DNA of 64,000 bases from Candidatus Ryanbacteria bacterium CG10_big_fil_rev_8_21_14_0_10_43_42 (GTDB lineage Bacteria; Patescibacteriota; Minisyncoccia; Ryanbacterales; 2-02-FULL-48-12): positions 97,368 through 161,367 of the forward strand of contig PFEF01000006.1 of assembly GCA_002793915.1 (NCBI GenBank), written 5' to 3'. Below are positions 5,235 to 55,135 of the stretch, piece by piece. Made by a program: the position numbers and the translations under genes. The notes under the pieces were generated by a model that had not been told where the DNA came from, did not search any database, and was given only the letters and a program-made list of their open reading frames with translations. Within the stretch, counting starts at the first letter, position 1. Each line of letters starts with the position of its first letter.

Positions 5235-7454
5235 GTGAGCATCCTTAAACAACTGGAAATTACCGGATTTAAATCGTTTGCCAAGCCGGTAACGATAGAG
5301 TTTGACGCGCCCATTACCGGTGTTGTCGGCCCGAACGGTTCGGGAAAATCAAATGTATCAGAGGCTATCAAATGGGTACTGGGCGAACAATCCATGAAGT
5401 CTTTGCGTGGAAAGCGCGGGGAAGATCTTATTTTCAACGGTTCGGGTTCGGTGTCTCAGCTCGGCAAAGCAAAGGTTTCCATTACGTTCGATAATAGTAG
5501 TAAGGTGCTTCCTCTTGATTTTGATGAGGTGATTGTTTCGCGTGAGGTATATCGGGACGGAGCGAATGAATATAAATTAAACGGATCTTCCGTGCGCCTA
5601 AAGGATGTTGTGGAACTTATGAGTAATGTGGGCGTAGGCGGATCGGGGCATCATATTATAAGCCAGGGGGAGGCGGATAGGATTTTACATGCATCACCCA
5701 AAGAAAAGCGCGCCATGCTGGAGGATGCGCTGGGGCTTAAAATTTATCAGATAAAGAAAGCGGAAACGGAGCGCAAGCTTGAGCATACGGAAACAAACAT
5801 GGTCCAAGTGGAGGCTCTTCGTCGCGAAGTGGCGCCGCATCTGACATTTTTACGCACGCAGGCGAAAAAAGTGGAAGCATCAAGTAAGTTACGGGAAGAG
5901 CTTAGGCAAAACGTTGCGGAATATATTGCACGGGAAAAGCATGCCATTGATAAAGAATATGCTCGTGTGGAGGCGGAGGAGGCGCCGTATAAAAAAGCAT
6001 ATGAAGAACTTGAAAAAGATTTGCATCTCATACGTTCGTCTTTTCCGAAAGGAGATGAGAAAATAGATACGGCTCACCAAAAAAAACAAGAGACGTACCG
6101 GCATGAGATGAATGAAATAGAGGAGCAGTATCGTGGATTAGAGCGTGAATTCGGCCGTTTGGAAGGACAACTTGCTGTTCTGGCAAAATCTTCCGCACCT
6201 ATTGTCTCATCACACGATGAACGCCATATTGCGGTCGGGGAGGTTAAGGACATTTTAGAGGAAATGCTTTCAATGCTTGCCGATATGGAGAACAGTAGTT
6301 CCGTAAGGGATGTGCAGGAAATTATTACACGCATACGCACGCACGCGGAGTCATTTTTGGAGCGTCTTTCCGTAAAGAAACCAAAAGAGGATATTGACAG
6401 TCAGCCCGCGGAGGAAATACATACTCTCACGAAAGAGAAGGAGTTTATGAATGATGCTATGCGGAAGCTGGCGGAGAAACGGGATGAAATGAGCCTGGTG
6501 ATGCAAAAAGAGAATGAGGACTTTATATCTTCGCGTCGGGCGCACGCGGACGCGGAGCGGCGCATGCACGATCGGGAAGCGGAATTATATACGGTAAAGG
6601 AGACGCTTCAGAAGTATGCGTTTATGAAAGAGCGTGTTCGGCTTCGGGAAGATGAATGGACGCGCGAGCATGAAGAAATGAAGCATATAGTGGAACAAGC
6701 GGACATGGGACGTTATACAGAGGCGTTTTCCCGGGAGGAACGTGAGCAACTTCGCCGGTCTATCCAACGGCTTAAGATAAAACTGGAAGAAGTGGGCGGT
6801 ATTGATACTGCTGTTTTGGAGGAATATAACGAAGTCGCCGAGCGCGATCAATTTTTAGAAAAAGAACTTTCCGATTTGCGGGAATCGGACGAATCTCTTC
6901 GCGCGCTGATGGAAGAATTACAAACACACCTCGAACATGATTTTCAAAAGGGTATTACGCAGATTAATATCGAGTTTGCTCATTTGTTTCAGACAATGTT
7001 TGGGGGAGGCAACGCTTCTCTTATTACCGTTAAAGAAAAAAAACGAAAACAAAACCGCGAGGAAGAATATGAGCAGGAAGAAAATGGCGTTGAGGATGAT
7101 GGGGAAGCCGGTATAGAGATAGCTGTAGATCTTCCGCGGAAACGTATTAAAAATCTTGATATGCTTTCCGGCGGAGAGCGCGCTCTTACCTCAATTGCTC
7201 TTTTATTTGCGATGTCTATTGTCAATCCGCCGCCGTTTTTGGTGCTTGATGAAACGGATGCGGCGCTCGATGAAGCAAATTCACAGCGGTACGGTGCCAT
7301 GCTTCAGCAACTTTCCAAAGAAACACAGCTTATTGTCATAACGCATAATCGTCAAACAATGAAAGAAGCGGGTATTCTTTACGGGGTTACAATGGGATCG
7401 GACGGTATCTCGAAGATATTATCGGTTAAATTTAATGAAGAAAAAACGCCATAA
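5235..7454 (+). CDS. smc: chromosome segregation SMC-like ATPase (short, 739 aa)
   Basis: N-terminal Walker A (GPNGSGKSN), a long coiled-coil region, and a C-terminal ABC signature LSGGERALTSIALLFA with Walker B VLDETDAALD. Sits at the conserved rnc-smc position. Confidence 0.7.
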   Translation: MSILKQLEITGFKSFAKPVTIEFDAPITGVVGPNGSGKSNVSEAIKWVLGEQSMKSLRGKRGEDLIFNGSGSVSQLGKAKVSITFDNSSKVLPLDFDEVIVSREVYRDGANEYKLNGSSVRLKDVVELMSNVGVGGSGHHIISQGEADRILHASPKEKRAMLEDALGLKIYQIKKAETERKLEHTETNMVQVEALRREVAPHLTFLRTQAKKVEASSKLREELRQNVAEYIAREKHAIDKEYARVEAEEAPYKKAYEELEKDLHLIRSSFPKGDEKIDTAHQKKQETYRHEMNEIEEQYRGLEREFGRLEGQLAVLAKSSAPIVSSHDERHIAVGEVKDILEEMLSMLADMENSSSVRDVQEIITRIRTHAESFLERLSVKKPKEDIDSQPAEEIHTLTKEKEFMNDAMRKLAEKRDEMSLVMQKENEDFISSRRAHADAERRMHDREAELYTVKETLQKYAFMKERVRLREDEWTREHEEMKHIVEQADMGRYTEAFSREEREQLRRSIQRLKIKLEEVGGIDTAVLEEYNEVAERDQFLEKELSDLRESDESLRALMEELQTHLEHDFQKGITQINIEFAHLFQTMFGGGNASLITVKEKKRKQNREEEYEQEENGVEDDGEAGIEIAVDLPRKRIKNLDMLSGGERALTSIALLFAMSIVNPPPFLVLDETDAALDEANSQRYGAMLQQLSKETQLIVITHNRQTMKEAGILYGVTMGSDGISKILSVKFNEEKTP

Positions 7455-9608: not shown

Positions 9609-9744
9609 TGGACGCACACTCATATTTTGCAAGATCGTTGAAAATCTATTCTATTGTTCCGGTCGAACACGGTGCGCACTTTTTGTGTGCTGTGTTCATA
9701 TTCTGAATATTATAATGAGTAATATCACTATGGTATTTGGATTT

Positions 9745-11215
<1,471 letters not shown>

Positions 11216-11344
11216 TAAGGATATACATCTCATGCTAACGGCATGAGTATGGTCGTTCGAATATTTGCGGATATATGGCAAGTATTTGAAACGGTTTGGT
11301 CGTCACCAATCAGAAAACGACTCCGGAACAATAGAATAGGCGTT

Positions 11345-11386
11345 CAACACAAAAAGCCGCCGTCAAACGGCGGTTTTTTGTGTTGG
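11345..11386 (+). terminator. long perfect hairpin with a T-run in the 16S-tRNA spacer
   Basis: caacacaaaaagccgcc / ggcggttttttgtgttgg, a 17 bp stem with a 7 nt loop. Confidence 0.4.
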
Positions 11387-11544
11387 TGGGAGTAAGTAAA
11401 TGGAATGCAGGAAATGGCAATAATCGTTTATGGGCGGTTATCATATTGAAAAATAGAGTAAAACAGTGTAGGCTATGTTCTATAGATACGGGTGTTCAGC
11501 TCAAGCCGGTTTAATCCGTTCTGAACAAGTGCCTTATAATTAAT

Positions 11545-11618
11545 GGGCGTGTAGCTCAGCTGGTTAGAGCGCGTCACTGATAATGACGAGGTCGGAGGTT
11601 CGAGTCCTCCCACGCCCA
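11545..11618 (+). tRNA. tRNA-Ile (anticodon GAT)
   Basis: Cloverleaf read by hand: acceptor gggcgtg/cacgccc, anticodon loop ctGATaa, T-loop ttcgagt. No encoded CCA. Confidence 0.9.
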
Positions 11619-11628
11619 CAGAATGGAT

Positions 11629-11717
11629 TTAGAGCGGAGAAGAGTAATAGGAATTACTCTTCTCCTGATAACTAGAAAATACCTGTGATATTTTCTAGAG
11701 GTCGGAGGTTCGGAGTA
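11629..11717 (+). pseudogene. degenerate tRNA-Ile-derived element: a copy from the D-arm 3' side to the T-loop, with both anticodon-stem halves replaced by perfect hairpins
   Basis: It shares ttagagcg, ctgataa and a 14 nt exact aggtcggaggttcg with the upstream tRNA-Ile. In place of the anticodon-stem halves it has inserted hairpins gagaagagtaat/attactcttctc and ctagaaaata/tattttctag. Confidence 0.5.
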
Positions 11718-11792
11718 ACGTAATCCAAGTGGACATAAAGATACACACAGTAATAAATGCGCTTCTTGCGTATTTTTTTGTATACTATATCT

Positions 11793-12764
11793 ATGAAGCA
11801 GAATAAATTAAAAATTGGTGTTGTAATGGGCGGACCGTCGAGCGAGCATGATATTTCATTAATGACGGGTAGGAATGTTATAGATACTCTTCGCGGATTA
11901 GGGCATACGGTAACACAGGTATATGTTACCAAATCGGGCAATTGGCTCTATAACAACAGTGCTTCCGCTTTCGATCCGGTAGAGATATGCGCACGTCATG
12001 ATGTTATGTTCAATGCTATGCACGGGGAATATGGTGAGGATGGGCAGGTACAGCAAATTTTTGACAGATGCAATGTGCGGTATACGGGATCTCGCACAAC
12101 GGCGGCGGCACTTGCGATGAACAAAATAATCAGCAAAGATATTTTTAATAAGGCGGGAATCCTTACGCCAAGAGCCGTAGCGTTCGAGCGGAATAATTTT
12201 GATATGAAGGAGGCTCTTTCTCGCGTGCATCTCATGACGGCACCTCCCTGGGTAGTGAAGCCCGCAAGTCGCGGTTCTTCCGTGGGTGTTACCATAGCAC
12301 GCACACTTCCGGGGTTAGCCGACGGTTTGGAAACCGCATTCGGGTATGATAATCATGTTGTAGTGGAAGAATTTATAAAAGGACGGGAGATTACCTGTGG
12401 AGTACTTCAGGATTTTGCCGGAGAGGATGTGCACGCGCTTCACCCGCTGGAGATTATTCCGCCGGACGGAAAGTTCTTTGATTATGAAGTAAAGTATGAT
12501 GGTTCTACAAAAGAAGTTCCAGCACCGTTCTTCGGCGAAATGCTTAAAAATATTAAGGCACAGGCCGTTGCGGCTCATAATGCGCTCGGATGTCGGCATT
12601 ATTCCCGTACGGATATGATTATTAAGGGAACGAAAATATACGTTTTGGAAACGAATACCCTACCGGGACTCACAAGCGAATCGCTTTTCCCGAAACAGGC
12701 GCGATTAGCTAAAATGGAATTTCCGCAGTTACTGGAACATTTGGTGCGTTTGGCAACGGCATAA
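11793..12764 (+). CDS. ddl: D-alanine--D-alanine ligase
   Basis: MKQNKLKIGVVMGGPSSEHDISL N-terminus and an ATP-grasp pattern. The ORF track starts at 11757, but the ATG at 11793 fits the family N-terminus. Confidence 0.8.
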   Translation: MKQNKLKIGVVMGGPSSEHDISLMTGRNVIDTLRGLGHTVTQVYVTKSGNWLYNNSASAFDPVEICARHDVMFNAMHGEYGEDGQVQQIFDRCNVRYTGSRTTAAALAMNKIISKDIFNKAGILTPRAVAFERNNFDMKEALSRVHLMTAPPWVVKPASRGSSVGVTIARTLPGLADGLETAFGYDNHVVVEEFIKGREITCGVLQDFAGEDVHALHPLEIIPPDGKFFDYEVKYDGSTKEVPAPFFGEMLKNIKAQAVAAHNALGCRHYSRTDMIIKGTKIYVLETNTLPGLTSESLFPKQARLAKMEFPQLLEHLVRLATA

Positions 12765-12792
12765 CAGATCTTTTACAAGGAGGAAGTGTTTT

Positions 12793-13536
12793 ATGAGACG
12801 CATGCGATGGCAGAGTTGGGCTTTGGGATTTTCTCTTTTATATATTTTAGTTAAGGGATTTGGTTCATCTGAATATGCGAGTATGGTAACGCCCGCACGC
12901 TTTTATATACAGTCTTATTTTGTAGAAACGCGCCTGGTTGTATACGAAGGGGAATACTGGCGTGTTGTACTACACGAAAAGCAGAATCCGCATTTCTTGC
13001 GGAGCATCGTGCGTTTAAAACGGGTATGCGAATCTCCCGTATGCCTAACGTCTGCTGAAAGGCGAGAACGGGATGAGATAGAACTCGTACTACATACTTT
13101 GGTACTTAGATATGGCGCCACCTACACCAACTTTATGCGTCTTATGAATAATGCTTATCGTTCGCCGATTCCTATGCCGGTAATGCATTATCACTTTATT
13201 CCGCGCTACAAAACCCCATTTTCTTTTGGAGAGATATATTTTCATGATAAGGCGTATGGGCGTCATTATTCTGAAAACGAAGAAAAGCCGGTTCCTCCCG
13301 CACTTATGCTTCTCATAAAAAATATTGTAGGGAAAGAATTTAAAGACCGTATGCCAAAGCCATCCGCAGAGGTGGCTTTTTTCTTGAAAAAAAGGAAGAA
13401 CCATGGTATGGTTTTTTGTAGATTTCAAATTAAAATATTTCGAAATTTACGAGGGCGAATTTCGGTAGCTCATCTGGTAGAGCGGTTTGATATGCCCCCA
13501 GCATATCAAACTTGCACTGCGGAGGGTGGAAAGTAA
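12793..13536 (+). CDS. hypothetical protein (possible HIT-like fold); the 3' end runs into the tRNA-like element
   Basis: 247 aa ORF with no family recognised with confidence. The last 27 codons are translated from the tRNA-Ala-like sequence, so the true C-terminus or the gene's integrity is uncertain. Confidence 0.3.
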   Translation: MRRMRWQSWALGFSLLYILVKGFGSSEYASMVTPARFYIQSYFVETRLVVYEGEYWRVVLHEKQNPHFLRSIVRLKRVCESPVCLTSAERRERDEIELVLHTLVLRYGATYTNFMRLMNNAYRSPIPMPVMHYHFIPRYKTPFSFGEIYFHDKAYGRHYSENEEKPVPPALMLLIKNIVGKEFKDRMPKPSAEVAFFLKKRKNHGMVFCRFQIKIFRNLRGRISVAHLVERFDMPPAYQTCTAEGGK

Positions 13537-13566
13537 CGGGGTTACTTTCCACGGTTCGAGTCCTAG
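13465..13566 (+). pseudogene. degenerate tRNA-Ala-derived element with two perfect hairpin insertions
   Basis: Its D-arm gtagctcatctggtagagcg, the cttgcactgcgg segment and the T-loop ggttcgagtcc are identical to tRNA-Ala 150 nt downstream. The 5' anticodon-stem half is replaced by tttgatatgc/gcatatcaaa, and gtggaaagtaa/ttactttccac is inserted before the T-arm. No acceptor pairing is present. Confidence 0.5.
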
Positions 13567-13611
13567 GAGGGTAAAAGACTTTAATAATAGGTTTAGAGAC
13601 GTAAATAATAT

Positions 13612-13684
13612 GGGCCCGTAGCTCATCTGGTAGAGCGCCGCACTTGCACTGCGGAGGTGGCAGGTTCGAGTCCTGTCGGGTCCA
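13612..13684 (+). tRNA. tRNA-Ala (anticodon TGC)
   Basis: Acceptor gggcccg/cgggtcc with a G3:U70 pair, anticodon loop ctTGCac, T-loop ttcgagt. Confidence 0.9.
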
Positions 13685-13812
13685 CATCGTAAATCTCAAT
13701 AACCGTTTTTAACCTCCCGCTGTCCGCGTGCCGGCAAGGCGGAAAGAGGGAGTTTTTGGTTTGCTTAGCCGCTTTCTTGTTTACAAAACCCCTTAAATCC
13801 GATATGATTTAA

Positions 13813-13871: not shown

Positions 13872-14069
13872 ATGAAAATTGCAGATAACCTCAAAAAAAT
13901 AAGAGCGGAAAAGAGCTACTCTCTCGAAAAAGTGGCGCGGTTAGCTGATTTGTCGCTCAATACGGTTGTAAAGATAGAAAGCGGGGTCAATAAGAATCCT
14001 ACTATCGATACTCTTTCCAAAATCGCCAAGGCGCTTGAGGTTGATGTTGATGATTTAATACAGAAGTAG
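13872..14069 (+). CDS. XRE-family helix-turn-helix regulator (controller/C-protein-like)
   Basis: 65 aa with an HTH_XRE pattern (SLEKVARLADLSLNTVVKIESG). The stop codon lies 2 nt before the methyltransferase ATG. Confidence 0.7.
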   Translation: MKIADNLKKIRAEKSYSLEKVARLADLSLNTVVKIESGVNKNPTIDTLSKIAKALEVDVDDLIQK

Positions 14070-14071
14070 TT

Positions 14072-15190
14072 ATGAACACCCAAACCTTAAACATGGGCCT
14101 TAACAAGGCTGGTCAAGCAAAGAAAGATGAGTTTTATACTCAGCTCGTTGATATTGAAAAAGAGTTGAAGCATTACAAAAATCAATTTCGAGGCAAGGTT
14201 GTTTATTGCAACTGCGACGATCCGTTTGAGAGTAACTTTTTTAAATATTTCGCTGGTAATTTTAATGCACTGGGATTGAAAAAACTAATTGCGACGAGCT
14301 ACAAGCCGTCACCTATTGCAAATACACAGCTTGGACTATTTGGTGACGAAGAAGTGCTGACAAAATCCAAAGGCCGTCCAAAAGTGACTGCCAATAAATT
14401 TATCATCAACGAAGTTGATGATTTTGATGGCGACGGTGCTTTTGATTTACGTGATGTCGCTGAACAGCTCAAAGCAAACAAAAACAACGAATGGGCACCG
14501 TTAGATAGCGAGGGAGATTTTAGAAGTCCAGAAAGTATAGAGTTGCTTAAACAAGCTGACATTGTAGTGACAAATCCGCCATTTTCACTCTTTCGTGAGT
14601 ATGTAGCCCAACTTGTTGAATACGATAAGAAATTTTTAATACTTGGGGACCAAAACGCCATAACATACAAGGAGATTTTTAAGTTAATTAGCGACGATAA
14701 AATATGGCTCGGTTACGATAATGGAGGCACGAAATGGTTTCAAGTCCCGATGGATTACGACATTCCAACTGAATCAAGAAAGAAAATCGTAAACGGCGTG
14801 AAGTATTTCAGTATGGGAAGAATTATGTGGTTTACAAATCTTGAGACCACAAAACGTCACGAGAGACTGACTTTGTATAAAACATACACCGCACAAGAAT
14901 ATCCTAAATACGACAACTATCCTGCAATAAACGTTGATAAAGTCTCTGATATTCCAATGGACTACGATGGAATAATGGGTGTCCCTATTACTTTCATCGA
15001 TAAATACAATCCAGAGCAGTTTGAAATATTAGGCATTACTGATAGACAAAACACGTCTGGTCTCCGAACGAAAAAATATACAGAAGCGGACAATCCTAAA
15101 TACAACGACTTAAATGCTCGTAGCGTGATAAAAACTGGCAATACTTACAAAGCTGTGTACGCGCGACTTTTAATAAGAAATAAAAAATAA
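14072..15190 (+). CDS. N6-adenine DNA methyltransferase (NPPF motif; EcoRI-methylase-like family)
   Basis: VVTNPPFSL is catalytic motif IV of amino-methyltransferases. The N-terminal DEFYT..CDDPFES region is as in the EcoRI-methylase family, recalled from memory. Translationally coupled to its neighbours. Confidence 0.55.
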   Translation: MNTQTLNMGLNKAGQAKKDEFYTQLVDIEKELKHYKNQFRGKVVYCNCDDPFESNFFKYFAGNFNALGLKKLIATSYKPSPIANTQLGLFGDEEVLTKSKGRPKVTANKFIINEVDDFDGDGAFDLRDVAEQLKANKNNEWAPLDSEGDFRSPESIELLKQADIVVTNPPFSLFREYVAQLVEYDKKFLILGDQNAITYKEIFKLISDDKIWLGYDNGGTKWFQVPMDYDIPTESRKKIVNGVKYFSMGRIMWFTNLETTKRHERLTLYKTYTAQEYPKYDNYPAINVDKVSDIPMDYDGIMGVPITFIDKYNPEQFEILGITDRQNTSGLRTKKYTEADNPKYNDLNARSVIKTGNTYKAVYARLLIRNKK

Positions 15191-15192
15191 TT

Positions 15193-16296
15193 ATGAAAAT
15201 TGAACTACACAGAATCAAAATACGTGAGGTAGTCAATGGCTACGCAGACAATCATGAAGAAGGTGTGGTTGCTTATGGTGGCAAGCTCGATATTCGACCT
15301 AAATATCAACGTGAATTTGTCTATAAAGATAAACAGCGCGATGCGGTCATTGATACCGTAAAGAAAAATTTTCCGCTCAATGTGATGTATTGGGTAAAAA
15401 GCGACGACGATAGCTTTGAGGTGTTAGACGGACAGCAAAGAACAATCAGTATCGGGCAATTTGCGAATGGAGATTTTTCGGTGGACTTTAATGGTCGCAC
15501 TGCTATGTTCCACAACCTTACTAAAGAAGAACAGGGGCAAATCCTCGATTACGAATTGATGGTGTACTTCTGTGAAGGAACAGATAAGGAAAAGTTAGAT
15601 TGGTTCAAGATTATCAACATCGCAGGCGAACGTCTTACCGATCAAGAATTGCGAAATGCTGTTTACACTGGCACATGGCTTTCGGACGCAAAACTTAAGT
15701 TTAGTAAATCTGGCTGCGCGGCATATCTTTTGGCAAATGATGGCGGCGCATTGCTTACAGGTTCACCAATTAGACAAGAGTACCTAGAAACTGCACTCTC
15801 GTGGATCAATAGCGGCGAAATTGCCGAATATATGGCAAAGCATCAGCACGACAAGAATGCCGATGAGCTGTGGAAGTATTTCCAAAATGTTATTGCGTGG
15901 GTGCGTCAGACATTTCCGAACTATCGCAAAGAAATGGCGCACGTAAATTGGGGCGAGTTGTACAACCAATTCAAGGATAAAAAGCTAAACGCCAAGAAAC
16001 TTGAAACAGAAGTTGCAGAATTTATGAAAGACGAAGATGTAACAAAAAAATCTGGTATCTATCCGTATGTTTTGACGCGAAATGAGCGGCATTTAAATAT
16101 CCGTTCATTTACTGACAATATGAAGCGAGAGGCGTACGAGAGGCAGAAAGGTATTTGTGCATTCTGCAAAGAAAAGTTTGATATTTCTGATATGGAAGCT
16201 GATCACATTACCCCTTGGCATGAGGGCGGCAAAACTAACGCAAAAAATTGCCAGTTGTTGTGCAAAGACGATAACCGAAGGAAATCTGGAAAGTAA
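15193..16296 (+). CDS. DUF262 (ParB-like, DGQQR) domain fused to a C-terminal HNH endonuclease
   Basis: LDGQQRTISIGQF is the DUF262 hallmark. The C-terminus CAFCKEKF...ADHITPWHEGGKTNAKNCQLLCKDDNRRK is an HNH motif. Its start overlaps the methyltransferase stop (taattATG). Confidence 0.7.
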   Translation: MKIELHRIKIREVVNGYADNHEEGVVAYGGKLDIRPKYQREFVYKDKQRDAVIDTVKKNFPLNVMYWVKSDDDSFEVLDGQQRTISIGQFANGDFSVDFNGRTAMFHNLTKEEQGQILDYELMVYFCEGTDKEKLDWFKIINIAGERLTDQELRNAVYTGTWLSDAKLKFSKSGCAAYLLANDGGALLTGSPIRQEYLETALSWINSGEIAEYMAKHQHDKNADELWKYFQNVIAWVRQTFPNYRKEMAHVNWGELYNQFKDKKLNAKKLETEVAEFMKDEDVTKKSGIYPYVLTRNERHLNIRSFTDNMKREAYERQKGICAFCKEKFDISDMEADHITPWHEGGKTNAKNCQLLCKDDNRRKSGK

Positions 16297-16306
16297 CACT
16301 AACACC

Positions 16307-19300
16307 ATGAGGCTACCTCCCCAAACAATACGAACACTGTTAGAGGCAATTTTTTGGGGATCTGCTGTTTCGTTTACCTTTATTCTTGGATCCGCTATTG
16401 GATCATGGTTTTCGTTGAATATTCTCCCAGACTATTCATGGTTGATTACTCGTAAGGGCGAGGCATTTTATATTTTTGTATTCGCTCTTTTATTCTCTTA
16501 TCTTTACTTTCGAGATTTTCTACAAGTAGTATGGAAGGTCATAAAGAGTTCGAGATTTGATATTTTTATTGCGGCAGGATTAAGTGCATTGGTGGTCTTT
16601 AGCAATAAAAATATACTTTCTACATACATACAGGAGCATGTAATGGAACTAAACAGCGACAGCGTATTACTTTTCTTTATTATTGTATTTATTTTGTCGC
16701 TATCATGCGTACTGTATGTGATACTGCAAATGTTTAACCGCAGAAAGAAAGTGGACTCAAAATTTGCAAATGATAACCCAATTAGGGATTCCGAAGGCGA
16801 TCTCCTGGATTTTAGTACAAAAGCAAATTCGTTCGCAGAGAATATCTTTCATGCTTCACAGGGTAAGGGTTTAGTGTTTGGTGTAGATGCCCCTTGGGGA
16901 TCTGGTAAGTCATCATTTTTAAATCTCTGTAAGAGGTATTGGGAAATCAAACATAAAAACGAGTTAATTGTGTACGAATTTAGTCCCTTACACTATTCAA
17001 CAGATGCTAATTTACTTGAGAGATTTGTGGATGGTCTAATAAAAGAAATACAAAAGAATGTTTTTATTCCTGAGATACGCCCACTTTTTTCTCAATATTC
17101 TAAGCTCATCAAGATAGTAAATGGATTTAGTATTTTTGGGGTAAAAATTCCAGAATTTGCTAGTAGGCGCACCATTAACGATGTACATAATGATTTAGAG
17201 TGTGCACTAAATGGAATCAATAGGAGAATAATCGTTATTGTAGACGACCTAGACCGCATAGAATTAAAAGAGATTAAGAACGTATTGTTTGCAATACGTG
17301 AAAGTTTTAAATTCCCCAATATTTCGTATGTCTTATGTTACGACACAGAGAATATAAATGCATTGGAGGCAGATACGCCAGAGATTGAGACGGTGAATGA
17401 ATTCCTGGAGAAATTCGTCAATATTAAGATAAGTATTTTCCTCGATAAGAAAAACCTAGAGAATTTCGTTTCAAAAGAATTGAAAAAGGTAATTGAGGAC
17501 AAAACAACAGATCCAGAACTTGTTGCTGTCGTATTAAGCGGACTACGCGACATATTTCAATCACCTGAATTTCATCGTTATACGTCCTTTGTCGGAGACA
17601 TTAGAAAATTGAAGCGACTTGTGAATACGGTGGTTCTTTTAGAGTTGTATAAAGTAAACTTCGATAAAGCAGATATTGATAAGTTTGATTTAGCTCATTT
17701 ACTACTGATTTATATTAATTATCCAAGTATTTTCAGAAAAATTTATAACACCGAAACTGCAGGTGGTTATGGTTTTTTCTCTGCAGTTGGTCCCTATGAC
17801 AGTGAGTTTTATCCAAAAGATAAGAAGAGAAACAATGGAGAAAGGAGCGACACATATGAAAATTCTGATGTATACAACGAATATCTAGAGGACTTAACAG
17901 ATAATCAAAAGTTTCTCATTGAGCAGATATTTAATGTCACTAGGCGACTTAAGCGAGCAAAAAATAATGATAGTGCAAACCACTACATCAATAATGAAGA
18001 TTCATATCGAAAGATAGACAGTGTATCGGAAGACATAAAAACTTCCCTGGCATGTTTCAATGGTGACAAATTTACTGGTTCTGGTCGCAATCTAGAAGAT
18101 TATTTGCGTTTAATTGCTCATCTAGCGCCGCCAGAAGAAGAAAAGCAATTTGCACCTTTCAAAAACTGGCGAGACAAGATCATTAGCGAAGATATAACTA
18201 TAGAACAACTTTTTAATCAACCAGAATTTTCTGTTGAACTTGGCGAGCAAAAGCGACAAAAACTTTGGCGTCTCATTGTAAACAACACAAGGAAACTGAA
18301 TCAAAATGTTGCTGGTAATTTAATAAGGTATCTGACACAAAATATATCTAAATATTCCCTGTTTGAAAACGAGGTTCTTGGCGTAGGACTACGTCATCAT
18401 GATCTTCCTTATTTTTTGGTACGACTGCTTAATGATGCTGGATATAAAGGTAGCATGAATGGTAATAATACGGAGGAAAACATCAAAGAAATCGCTGATT
18501 GGATTTTCGGTGAAGACACCCACAAAGATGAAGGAATACTAGACGCCTTGTTAGAAGATGAGCGAGGTATTCTTGGTCTATATGATTCACTTAGTTTGAG
18601 ATTGATCTGCTGTTCCGATAGAGGTGGCGATATTTTCAACGTATCTAGAGCAATAGCAAAACACGGTAATAAAGAAGCTCCTACTGCGGGGGACACGAGA
18701 ATCATTGTAAAAGAAGAAATGCGTGAAATTTCACAGAAAATTTTTGGTGTGTTTAAATCACGATACATTGACAAAAAGATTAACATTTTTTCGGAAGTTC
18801 AAAAGTTGTCTTTGGATAATATAACGGGAGAATATTCCACTTATGTGCGAAATCAAGTGAAAGGCGGTGTTATATCTGAAGATAAGTTACAGGCAGATGT
18901 TGAATATACAAAATTTAATGCTTTAGGTTTTATTGTTTACCAGCTAGGTGATGACCAGATAAATCACGGGGTTGGTTGTGGTCTTTATGATCCTCTCGGA
19001 AATGCTGACAAAGGAATGATCAAAAACTTGATGAATAAGTATCTATTTGAGAGGTGCTTTAATCCGACAACCAGTGAGAATAATTATGAGAATCTTTTAA
19101 GTTTGCTTTTGAGGAATATTCCATTTGATGCTCTCAGGGAAGATCATTTTGGTAAAATTCCTGACTTTAAGTTAAAAACGATTGTTGGTGTTCTTGATAT
19201 ACAAACTCTCTCTGAATTTTGGAAGGAACATAGAGAAAAAATCAAGAAACTAAACTTTGAGAATTCAGGTAAAAAAATATTTATGGGAACACGATATGTA

Positions 19301-19414
19301 AATTCAGATTCTGAGGATATTTTTGCGTCCTATCAAAACGACTTGCCACGTGTATATAAGGCACTCGATGATTATATCGATAACCCTACTGGCAAAGGGG
19401 AGTCGCCCGCATAG
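16307..19414 (+). CDS. KAP-family P-loop NTPase with an N-terminal 4-5 helix transmembrane region
   Basis: Walker A GVDAPWGSGKSSFLNL and Walker B IIVIVDDLDR within a KAP-like region, preceded by about 180 aa of transmembrane helices. The ORF track begins at 16157, but the ATG at 16307 sits just after the upstream stop. Confidence 0.7.
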   Translation: MRLPPQTIRTLLEAIFWGSAVSFTFILGSAIGSWFSLNILPDYSWLITRKGEAFYIFVFALLFSYLYFRDFLQVVWKVIKSSRFDIFIAAGLSALVVFSNKNILSTYIQEHVMELNSDSVLLFFIIVFILSLSCVLYVILQMFNRRKKVDSKFANDNPIRDSEGDLLDFSTKANSFAENIFHASQGKGLVFGVDAPWGSGKSSFLNLCKRYWEIKHKNELIVYEFSPLHYSTDANLLERFVDGLIKEIQKNVFIPEIRPLFSQYSKLIKIVNGFSIFGVKIPEFASRRTINDVHNDLECALNGINRRIIVIVDDLDRIELKEIKNVLFAIRESFKFPNISYVLCYDTENINALEADTPEIETVNEFLEKFVNIKISIFLDKKNLENFVSKELKKVIEDKTTDPELVAVVLSGLRDIFQSPEFHRYTSFVGDIRKLKRLVNTVVLLELYKVNFDKADIDKFDLAHLLLIYINYPSIFRKIYNTETAGGYGFFSAVGPYDSEFYPKDKKRNNGERSDTYENSDVYNEYLEDLTDNQKFLIEQIFNVTRRLKRAKNNDSANHYINNEDSYRKIDSVSEDIKTSLACFNGDKFTGSGRNLEDYLRLIAHLAPPEEEKQFAPFKNWRDKIISEDITIEQLFNQPEFSVELGEQKRQKLWRLIVNNTRKLNQNVAGNLIRYLTQNISKYSLFENEVLGVGLRHHDLPYFLVRLLNDAGYKGSMNGNNTEENIKEIADWIFGEDTHKDEGILDALLEDERGILGLYDSLSLRLICCSDRGGDIFNVSRAIAKHGNKEAPTAGDTRIIVKEEMREISQKIFGVFKSRYIDKKINIFSEVQKLSLDNITGEYSTYVRNQVKGGVISEDKLQADVEYTKFNALGFIVYQLGDDQINHGVGCGLYDPLGNADKGMIKNLMNKYLFERCFNPTTSENNYENLLSLLLRNIPFDALREDHFGKIPDFKLKTIVGVLDIQTLSEFWKEHREKIKKLNFENSGKKIFMGTRYVNSDSEDIFASYQNDLPRVYKALDDYIDNPTGKGESPA

Positions 19415-54167: not shown

Positions 54168-54203
54168 GCAAGGTCGGTTAATTGGTAACCGACCTTGTTC
54201 TTT
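54168..54203 (+). repeat. terminator hairpin repeat, copy 1 (ggtcggttaa-ttgg-ttaaccgacc followed by ttgttcttt); copy 2 is at 55100..55135
   Basis: A roughly 35 nt segment repeated identically after each of the two paralogous genes. Confidence 0.5.
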
Positions 54204-55099: not shown

Positions 55100-55135
55100 A
55101 CGGTCGGTTAATTGGTAACCGACCTTGTTCTTTCA
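55100..55135 (+). repeat. terminator hairpin repeat, copy 2
   Basis: acggtcggttaattggtaaccgaccttgttcttt, identical to 54168..54203. Confidence 0.5.

Follow-up and report, generated by a model that had tools for sequence, protein, structure and literature searches.

Immediately downstream of the functional tRNA-Ile(GAU) gene in the ribosomal RNA (rRNA) operon of an uncultured bacterium lies what we identify as the 3' remainder of an old, non-decoding duplicate of the same gene, in which the strands of the anticodon stem have given way to perfect hairpins. The DNA in question (the window, throughout this text) is a stretch of 64,000 nucleotides (nt), positions 97,368 to 161,367 of contig PFEF01000006.1 from Candidatus Ryanbacteria bacterium CG10_big_fil_rev_8_21_14_0_10_43_42 (assembly GCA_002793915.1), and its host is a member of the Candidate Phyla Radiation (CPR, or Patescibacteria) of the Parcubacteria type. 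The first of the two hairpins marks out what we recognise as a family of tRNA-Ile remnants, which carry this hairpin and stand next to the tRNA-Ile of the rRNA operon in many CPR lineages. As far as could be found the family is undescribed, and a search of the literature for CPR pseudo-tRNAs or hairpin-bearing tRNA remnants returned nothing specific. We give roughly an even chance to the proposal that the remnant belongs to a non-decoding structure of leader and trailer that surrounds tRNA-Ile and is transcribed with it, and whose hairpins are written and maintained by template switching. Should the family be functional, it would add a structured RNA element, not described before, to the rRNA operons of a vast radiation of uncultured bacteria, and would be a bacterial case of a nested or disrupted tRNA gene.

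A tRNA-Ile duplicate rewritten with hairpins

The functional tRNA-Ile(GAU) occupies 11545-11619 on the plus strand (ARAGORN; Rfam RF00005, 75.7 bits), and the element starts 9 nt beyond it and ~400 nt past the 16S gene. On the same strand, TTAGAGCG (11629-11636) repeats the end of the D loop, the 3' strand of the D stem and G26 of the tRNA with 8/8 identity. Where the 5' strand of the anticodon stem should follow, there is instead hairpin 1, with arms at 11636-11648 and 11653-11665 around the loop AGGA. The anticodon loop itself, CTGATAA, is retained unchanged at 11665-11671, after which the 3' strand of the anticodon stem is replaced by hairpin 2 (arms 11672-11681 and 11689-11698), which was recovered by a scan for perfect hairpins and has 10 base pairs (bp) and a 7-nt loop, CCTGTGA. 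The last recognisable piece, GAGGTCGGAGGTTCG (11698-11712), joins variable region, the 5' strand of the T stem and T loop in one patch that matches the window's own tRNA-Ile at 15/15 positions. These exact tRNA segments stand in tRNA order, and the element is derived from tRNA-Ile. A preliminary description of the locus had proposed such a copy, and every part that it listed was found in its place, including hairpin 2 as ctagaaaata/tattttctag. Small differences concern the gap to the tRNA, given there as ten nucleotides, hairpin 1, whose 12 bp become 13 if the closing G-C pair is counted, and the terminal repeat, which is 15 rather than 14 nt long.

The terminal patch also carries the T stem CGGAG, which is peculiar to the tRNA-Ile of the window lineage (relatives have CCCTG or CCCAG there), and because it bears this private sequence it was probably copied from the real gene recently. 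Chance is a poor author of such an arrangement: the window contains TTAGAGCG..CTGATAA..AGGTCGGAGGTTCG, in this order, a single time, against 0.00 times in 100 shuffles. Perfect hairpins of at least 9 bp number 14 in the 64 kb, and four of them fall within the tRNA-Ile element and a counterpart at tRNA-Ala described below. In a 106-nt RNA fold (z = -3.8), the anticodon loop is exposed between the two hairpins. A covariance model of the family (R1) finds a single copy in the window, at 58.3 bits and E ~2e-12, a score that is partly one of construction as the copy is among the 13 sequences from which the model was built.

Misassembly is an unlikely source of the element. The region 11400-13800 is identical in a contig of the European Nucleotide Archive (ENA), L001, whose independence from the source assembly of the window could not be told, and the element with hairpin 1 is found repeatedly in many unrelated metagenome assemblies. 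We judge it to be both real and old.

Hairpin 1 in relatives and metagenomes

Contigs and loci compared with the window carry L-numbers as labels. Metagenomes were scanned with the pattern TTAGAGCGGA-N18-30-TCCTSATAA, followed by a local hairpin filter. The scan returned 91 stretches, many of them unrelated (among them a family of repeats from soil and a protein-coding region from gut), and the filter removed these to leave ~13 distinct true members. Wherever the contig permits a check, across 13 aligned variants and two further finds by R1, members adjoin a real tRNA-Ile(GAU); R1 detects extra copies in L056 and L057. All family loci that reach an rRNA gene are in an rRNA-operon context. In L091 the order is 16S, eight tRNAs including Ile, the element, tRNA-Met, 23S and 5S, and 16S sequence is also present on the contigs of L011, L017 and L108. 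Members share TTAGAGCG (an invariance that is not independent evidence, the stretch having been set by the search pattern), a hairpin of ~13 bp closed by G26-C32 where the 5' anticodon-stem strand would be, and CTGATAA, after which TGACGAGGTC usually comes. The loop reads CTCATAA in L004 and CTAATAA in one copy, L034b; retention of the loops, as claimed in the preliminary description, is therefore true of most members but not of the closest relative of the window.

Complementarity in hairpin 1 has been kept while its sequence has changed. In the alignment of the 13 variants (A1), the 13-bp helix is paired in 90.9% of cells, and 10 of its 13 pairs have changed on both sides, giving 41 doubly changed cells. 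The covariation score is 0.63 against 0.14 in shuffles, none of 500 shuffles matches the alignment by any measure, and controls in which the helix was slid along A1 are ~50% paired. Of 150 pairs, 149 are Watson-Crick and one is G.U. The length of 13 bp at the same tRNA junction recurs in 9/13 variants. Between L018 and L108 the core is identical at 47/47 positions, with identity of ~60% at 60-200 nt downstream; segment-wise comparisons of this kind depend on free-end-gap alignments that proved unstable, and are clear only for this pair. The earlier view that the copy is not a product of simple random decay is borne out.

Relatives were also traced by way of ddl, the gene that follows tRNA-Ile. 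In the nearest, L004 (Ddl 79% identical), tRNA-Ile is followed by this element too, with 5/13 stem positions of hairpin 1 changed, four of them compensated on both sides and one to G.U, and with a loop, TCCT, that is the exact reverse complement of AGGA in the window. L004 is without hairpin 2 and has in its stead decayed versions of the 3' anticodon-stem strand, the T arm and the acceptor strand. L011 (Ddl 70%) has hairpin 1 with further compensated changes. Its element matches the tRNA-Ile typical of the clade rather than its own divergent neighbour gene, and so is old and not merely gene-converted; gene conversion from the neighbour is thereby ruled out as the sole cause of conservation. 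Hairpin 2 was found in neither L004, L011 nor any other family member, most of which keep a TGACG-like sequence at that place, and it is to all appearances young and specific to the window lineage. Of the 'structured rewrite' of the preliminary description, the half made by hairpin 2 is thus recent. Hairpin 1 is present in at least 13 lineages, and absence from related genomes, which that description named as a reason to lose interest, does not apply to it.

Split copies and helices around the real tRNA

The duplicate does not always lie in one piece. In the window, a degenerate fragment, gggtgttcagctcaagccgg (11490-11509, plus strand), comprises an acceptor 5' strand and a D-stem 5' strand and is identical at ~15/20 positions to the first 19 nt of the real tRNA-Ile; it is best read as the 5' piece of a disrupted 'outer' copy. 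Directly after it, in the minimum free energy (MFE) fold, begins a helix that brackets the functional gene. The 5' strand (11510-11523) pairs with a 3' strand (11619-11633) that runs into the first bases of the pseudo-copy, 11515-11523 with 11619-11627 and 11510-11514 with 11629-11633, both strands being read on the plus strand, and this fold has z = -4.2. The fragment and the helix, like the copy of tRNA-Ala at 13453-13564, were missed in the preliminary description.

Flanking helices at tRNA-Ile are also present in L029, L034, L047, L056, L088 and L091, with sequences that differ completely between lineages. They are of 8-14 bp, sometimes two in series, lengthen the acceptor stem and contain G.U pairs (5/90 on the tRNA strand, a proportion like that of RNA helices). 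Such a bracketing helix resembles an rRNA processing stem, an unusual companion for a tRNA. Clean 5' fragments of 16-21 nt precede the real gene in L029, L056 and L088, as do shorter ones in L006, L040 and L091; the hairpin-bearing remainder lies downstream in L029, L040, L056, L088 and L091, whereas L006 has none. In about half of the lineages, then, the duplicate is split, with a 5' fragment upstream, a covarying helix round the functional gene and the remainder downstream, and the real tRNA therefore occupies the former D loop of the outer copy. The MFE fold of the L056 unit (z = -7.1) combines an outer acceptor stem, D stem and T arm with a long helix, the inner tRNA cloverleaf, hairpin 1 and further hairpins. 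Other lineages have other layouts: L047 and L090 have an unsplit copy that precedes the real gene, copies stand in tandem in L034 and L057, and between L040 and L091 two types of T arm are swapped between real gene and pseudo-copy. This history reads as one of ancient duplicated tRNA-Ile copies that recombined and decayed differently between lineages.

A bolder reading is that of a 'tRNA inside a tRNA', in which the rRNA-operon tRNA-Ile of CPR bacteria would be matured on a non-decoding outer scaffold of acceptor, D and T arms, with hairpin 1 as its anticodon arm. The functional tRNA-Ile would sit on a helix springing from the outer D loop, the scaffold would direct or protect its processing, and the element of the window would be a partly eroded version. 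We offer this strong form tentatively and think it rather unlikely; if true, it would define an undescribed class of cis-acting, tRNA-derived processing element.

A second rewritten copy at tRNA-Ala

The functional tRNA-Ala(UGC) of the operon lies at 13612-13685 on the plus strand (ARAGORN and Rfam), and a rewritten copy of it, on the same strand at 13453-13564, ends 47 nt upstream. The copy consists of gggc and three identical blocks separated by perfect hairpins: a D arm (13465-13484, 20/20 identical), an 11-bp hairpin in place of the 5' anticodon-stem strand (13485-13511), ACTTGCACTGCGGAGG (13510-13525, 16/16), a 12-bp hairpin in place of the 5' strand of the T stem (13526-13552) and GGTTCGAGTCCT (13553-13564, 12/12). 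It goes unrecognised as a tRNA by ARAGORN and by Rfam at E<=10. It is absent from five relatives that have tRNA-Ala, all five of which are also without the HIT-like open reading frame (ORF) that precedes the copy in the window; L004 is the only relative with that ORF, and its contig stops short of the region.

Parallels exist at a third tRNA. In L091 (minus strand, ~11400-11520) a 19-nt 5' fragment of tRNA-Lys is followed by a perfect 12-bp hairpin, GTCAAAAGCAAA/TTTGCTTTTGAC, and L040 (~150-305, in tRNA orientation) has a pseudo-Lys copy with an inserted hairpin.

Known classes of element

Several familiar classes were tried and rejected. The element is not a canonical tRNA (Rfam RF00005 at >=29 bits, or ARAGORN): on the window ARAGORN reports three real tRNAs and nothing else, and the low-threshold search proposed in the preliminary description, an Rfam cmscan at E<=10 over 11400-13720, yields only the real tRNA-Ile (11545-11618) and tRNA-Ala (13612-13684). 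No other Rfam family, tRNA-like RNA and Y RNA included, matches either copy at that threshold. An intron-bearing, split or permuted tRNA gene is rejected too, for removal of the hairpins leaves TTAGAGCG-CTGATAA-AGGTCGG..., with no anticodon stem and no 3' strand of the T stem, and deletion of hairpin 1 in relatives leaves TGACG without a partner strand. No bulge-helix-bulge was evident at the insert boundaries on reading the sequences, no dedicated motif search having been made. As for a miniature inverted-repeat transposable element, a repetitive extragenic palindrome or another dispersed repeat, the arms of the four hairpins do not recur in the 64 kb at <=1 mismatch, chance 10-mers aside; with R1 finding one copy only, the small tRNA-derived mobile element suggested earlier finds no footing within the window. 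An intrinsic terminator is rejected because no T run follows hairpin 1, hairpin 2 or the two hairpins of the tRNA-Ala copy, and the sites returned by a terminator scan were 11755-11775 and 13356-13379. The 16S leader carries a boxA-like gatcgttgaaaatc; nothing like it follows hairpin 1, where CTGATAA stands instead, and a boxB/boxA antiterminator was rejected in turn.

Hairpins probably written at the DNA level

How might perfect hairpins come to occupy the place of tRNA stem strands? Hairpin 1 contains one G.U pair in 150, against 5 in 90 in the flanking helices (Fisher p = 0.03). Its stems change about as fast as the adjoining spacer, yet the changes are nearly always paired, and the young, lineage-specific hairpins are all perfect. 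Template switching in replication is known to produce perfect stems in one event, simultaneous compensatory changes and loop inversion (PMC8794818), and hairpin 1 exhibits these hallmarks in its Watson-Crick arms, its multiple paired changes and the inverted loop between the window and L004. Near-exclusive Watson-Crick pairing and loop inversion point to an origin of the hairpins in DNA-level mutation, probably by template switching, and not in design. Covariation here proves that complementarity has been maintained; it is no proof of selection on RNA structure.

Function or relic

Among functional readings, the one that seems to us most plausible, close to a candidate of the preliminary description, makes the element a processing or structural part of the transcript issuing from the 16S-tRNA unit. 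The whole unit would be transcribed together as far as a terminator-like site at 11755-11783, and the leader and trailer pair round tRNA-Ile would serve as a scaffold for processing or stability from which RNase P and RNase Z would excise the tRNA. The hairpins would lock the leftovers of the duplicate into inert, nuclease-resistant structures unable to fold as a second tRNA. Template switching in replication would have created the hairpins and kept them complementary, the old one (hairpin 1) as well as the young ones (hairpin 2 and both of those at tRNA-Ala). Short patches would have been refreshed by copying from the adjoining real gene, a view to which the private T stem of the terminal patch and the swapped T-arm types of L040 and L091 lend support.

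A number of observations weigh against this proposal. The window lineage is without the 3' half of the outer T arm and the 3' strand of the outer acceptor stem, making a complete outer tRNA-like fold impossible. Near-exclusive Watson-Crick pairing means that covariation is possible without selection on RNA structure, and the fixed bases of the search pattern (GCGGA and TCCTSATAA) are conserved partly by construction. Hairpin 1 is absent from three of the six ddl-linked relatives, L017 (Ddl 65%), L006 and L008, which have other tRNA-Ile fragments and other perfect hairpins in its stead. Turnover of this sort, with loss of hairpin 1, upstream copies in L047 and L090 and tandems in L034 and L057, fits neutral churn equally well. 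The rationale of inert packaging is itself weak, because replacing an anticodon-stem or T-stem strand spares those strands likeliest to mispair with the real tRNA.

All of this material could be read as a purely neutral relic: tandem or nested tRNA duplicates arise at a highly transcribed locus and decay, template switching writes short palindromes and keeps them perfect, and copying from the real gene maintains identical patches. The pairing statistics of hairpin 1 and its inverted loop suit such a history, as do a rate of stem change close to that of the surrounding spacer, the fast turnover of architecture among relatives, the decay of T and acceptor arms in most copies, the absence of hairpin 2 and the tRNA-Ala copy from the relatives checked, and the recurrence of fragment plus perfect hairpin at tRNA-Lys in L091 and L040. 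It is harder to see why ~100-300 nt of such material should be retained in many lineages with small genomes, why hairpin 1 should sit at the same junction with 13 bp in most variants, or why the core of L018 and L108 should be identical when the downstream sequence is not. L011 has kept its element though the neighbour gene is no longer a possible conversion donor, and the perfect hairpins of the window are concentrated in its tRNA-derived stretches (4/14). On balance we consider a relic without function somewhat unlikely, while taking it seriously. If it is the truth, the family would be an unusually clean natural record of template switching in a pseudogene, with paired changes, loop inversion and new hairpins in stem strands, and a warning that strong 'covariation' may arise without selection on RNA structure.

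The remaining explanations appear improbable to differing degrees. A trans-acting tRNA mimic or decoy would display the anticodon loop and so titrate isoleucyl-tRNA synthetase, a modification enzyme or an anticodon nuclease. CTGATAA, usually with TGACGAGGTC, is indeed single-stranded beside a very stable hairpin in nearly all members, and in the fold of the window version it stands between two; against this, the anticodon is altered in L004 (to CAT) and in L034b, the tRNA body required for recognition has decayed, there is no linkage to ileS or to a tRNA-targeting gene, and no Rfam family matches the element, all of which makes a decoy doubtful in the extreme. The attachment-site remnant of the preliminary description supposes that an integrase-driven element used the anticodon or T loop of tRNA-Ile, and later of tRNA-Ala, and left repeats and hairpins behind. 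Repeats of a tRNA 3' end, typical of such sites, exist in L008 (18 nt) and L017 (19 nt), most copies keep the segment from anticodon loop to 3' end, and a low-GC defence island follows tRNA-Ala. Yet the copy starts a mere 9 nt past an intact gene with no element body between, it has D-arm sequence 5' of its hairpin, no integrase is among the Pfam matches of the neighbour genes examined, and no further repeat of the tRNA-Ala 3' end of at least 10 nt is present in the window. A scan for the phage-side counterpart in viral contigs (IMG/VR only) turned up 4 matches to the pattern, all of them lacking both the hairpin and a tRNA context, and we hold an attachment-site scar to be marginally less probable even than a decoy. 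Lowest of all in our estimation, and very improbable, stands a signal in the DNA itself, with the palindromes acting as single-stranded hairpins or cruciforms for replication, recombination or a HUH-type enzyme. A hairpin beside a conserved single-stranded motif is the layout that HUH-type, replication and recombination enzymes recognise, and complementarity here is strictly Watson-Crick, but the arm sequences are unconserved, the element is single-copy in the window and always on the tRNA strand inside the transcription unit, and the neighbour genes examined include no HUH enzyme, transposase or recombinase.

Relation to known systems

Sublocation classes of attachment-site repeats at bacterial tRNA genes were reportedly set out by Williams in 2002. 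The present element shares with tRNA pseudogenes and partial duplications the non-functional partial copy beside an intact gene, which often preserves stretches running from the anticodon or T loop to the 3' end, and with duplications of the attachment-site type the plain 3'-end repeats of some relatives. It differs from both in that its stem strands are perfect hairpins and a D-arm piece precedes the hairpin, that the copy abuts the gene without island or integrase between, and that one hairpin covaries across many lineages.

Perfect stems, multiple compensatory changes and loop inversion place the hairpins close to those attributed to template switching (Monttinen and Loytynoja, PNAS 2022, PMC8794818) and to bacterial quasipalindrome correction, although the published cases concern rRNA and microRNA genes and not a tRNA-derived element, for which the process is deduced here from sequence patterns. 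Structured inserts at non-canonical positions, and separated pieces that in some lineages can still form acceptor and D stems, recall the multi-intron, split and permuted tRNA genes of archaea and algae (PMC3978253); here, however, removal of the inserts restores no stems, the host is bacterial, and an intact tRNA-Ile stands alongside or inside the copy. Pairing of leader with trailer around the gene of a stable RNA, including G.U pairs and covariation, is likewise a feature of the RNase III stems of bacterial rRNA operons, but the present helix brackets a tRNA, fragments of an old tRNA copy form its outer ends, and cleavage by RNase III or another enzyme is putative. Finally, non-decoding RNAs derived from tRNA are known (YrlA/Y RNAs, the tRNA-like domain of tmRNA, and 'tRNA-Other' of B. 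cereus, PMC3399842), and the outer copy of L056 is like them in keeping acceptor, D and T arms with a non-anticodon hairpin in the position of the anticodon arm. The family is unlike them in lacking an Rfam match and in the loss of T and acceptor arms in the window.

Locus and other observations

The rRNA operon of the window (9744-13685) is broken up. The 16S gene occupies 9744-11215, no 23S gene is present within the 64 kb, and between tRNA-Ile and tRNA-Ala are inserted ddl (11793-12764) and the HIT-like ORF (12793-13536). In relatives too, ddl lies between the two tRNAs, and it adjoins these rRNA-operon tRNAs in several (L006, L011, L017 and L008); the closest named relatives of the window Ddl are in Candidatus Ryanbacteria and metagenome-assembled genomes of the 'Parcubacteria group'. 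Many of the database contigs that bear ddl are very short. The tRNA-derived elements and ddl, lying between tRNA-Ile and tRNA-Ala, may partly explain why contigs so often end near the rRNA operon in these genomes.

The 16S leader (9636-9656) pairs with a trailer (11319-11340) in a processing helix. Beyond it a bidirectional terminator-like hairpin (11345-11385) separates the 16S gene from the tRNA-Ile unit, because of which tRNA-Ile is possibly transcribed apart from 16S. At the other end, a terminator-like hairpin with a T run (11755-11783, plus strand; 11755-11775 in the terminator scan) is probably the end of the tRNA-Ile transcription unit, just ahead of the promoter-like TATACT of ddl. 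The T run and TATACT/TATAAT are kept in L004 and L010. The hexamer stands 6-7 nt 5' of the ddl ATG, preceded by the T run (11778-11795 in the window; also in L004, L010 and L011), which suggests a leaderless ddl mRNA that would start just past the terminator-like site. The HIT-like ORF has no Pfam match and three homologues only, one of them with a HIT domain; because its frame crosses the terminator-like hairpin at 13356-13379 and enters the tRNA-Ala copy, its called C-terminus is probably not real.

Immediately 3' of tRNA-Ala lies the island mentioned above (13872-19414; GC content 0.35-0.40), with genes for an XRE regulator, an EcoRI-type adenine methyltransferase, a GmrSD/HNH nuclease and a KAP-family NTPase; neither an integrase nor a repeat of tRNA-Ala was found in it. 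Among the relatives, the 23S gene of L091 has a group I intron (6858-7071, minus strand), and in L017 a LAGLIDADG ORF (652-1293) comes directly after the 16S match, with an AstA-like ORF also present between 16S and tRNA-Ile. The soil repeat met in the metagenome scan, TTAGAGCGGAATCCGATCATCCTGTATCGTCCTGATAACCGCAGGA..., is on many contigs (L022, L024, L025, L032, L035, L042, L045, L046 and ~15 others), is unrelated to the family, and occurs in L046 as two oppositely oriented copies; possibly it represents an insertion-sequence end. Elsewhere in the window, a palindrome, GGTCGGTTAATTGGTAACCGACC, is followed by TTGTTCTTT in two places (54169-54197 and 55102-55124), both downstream of TTGCAA, and the pair looks like an operator or leader element common to two transcription units.

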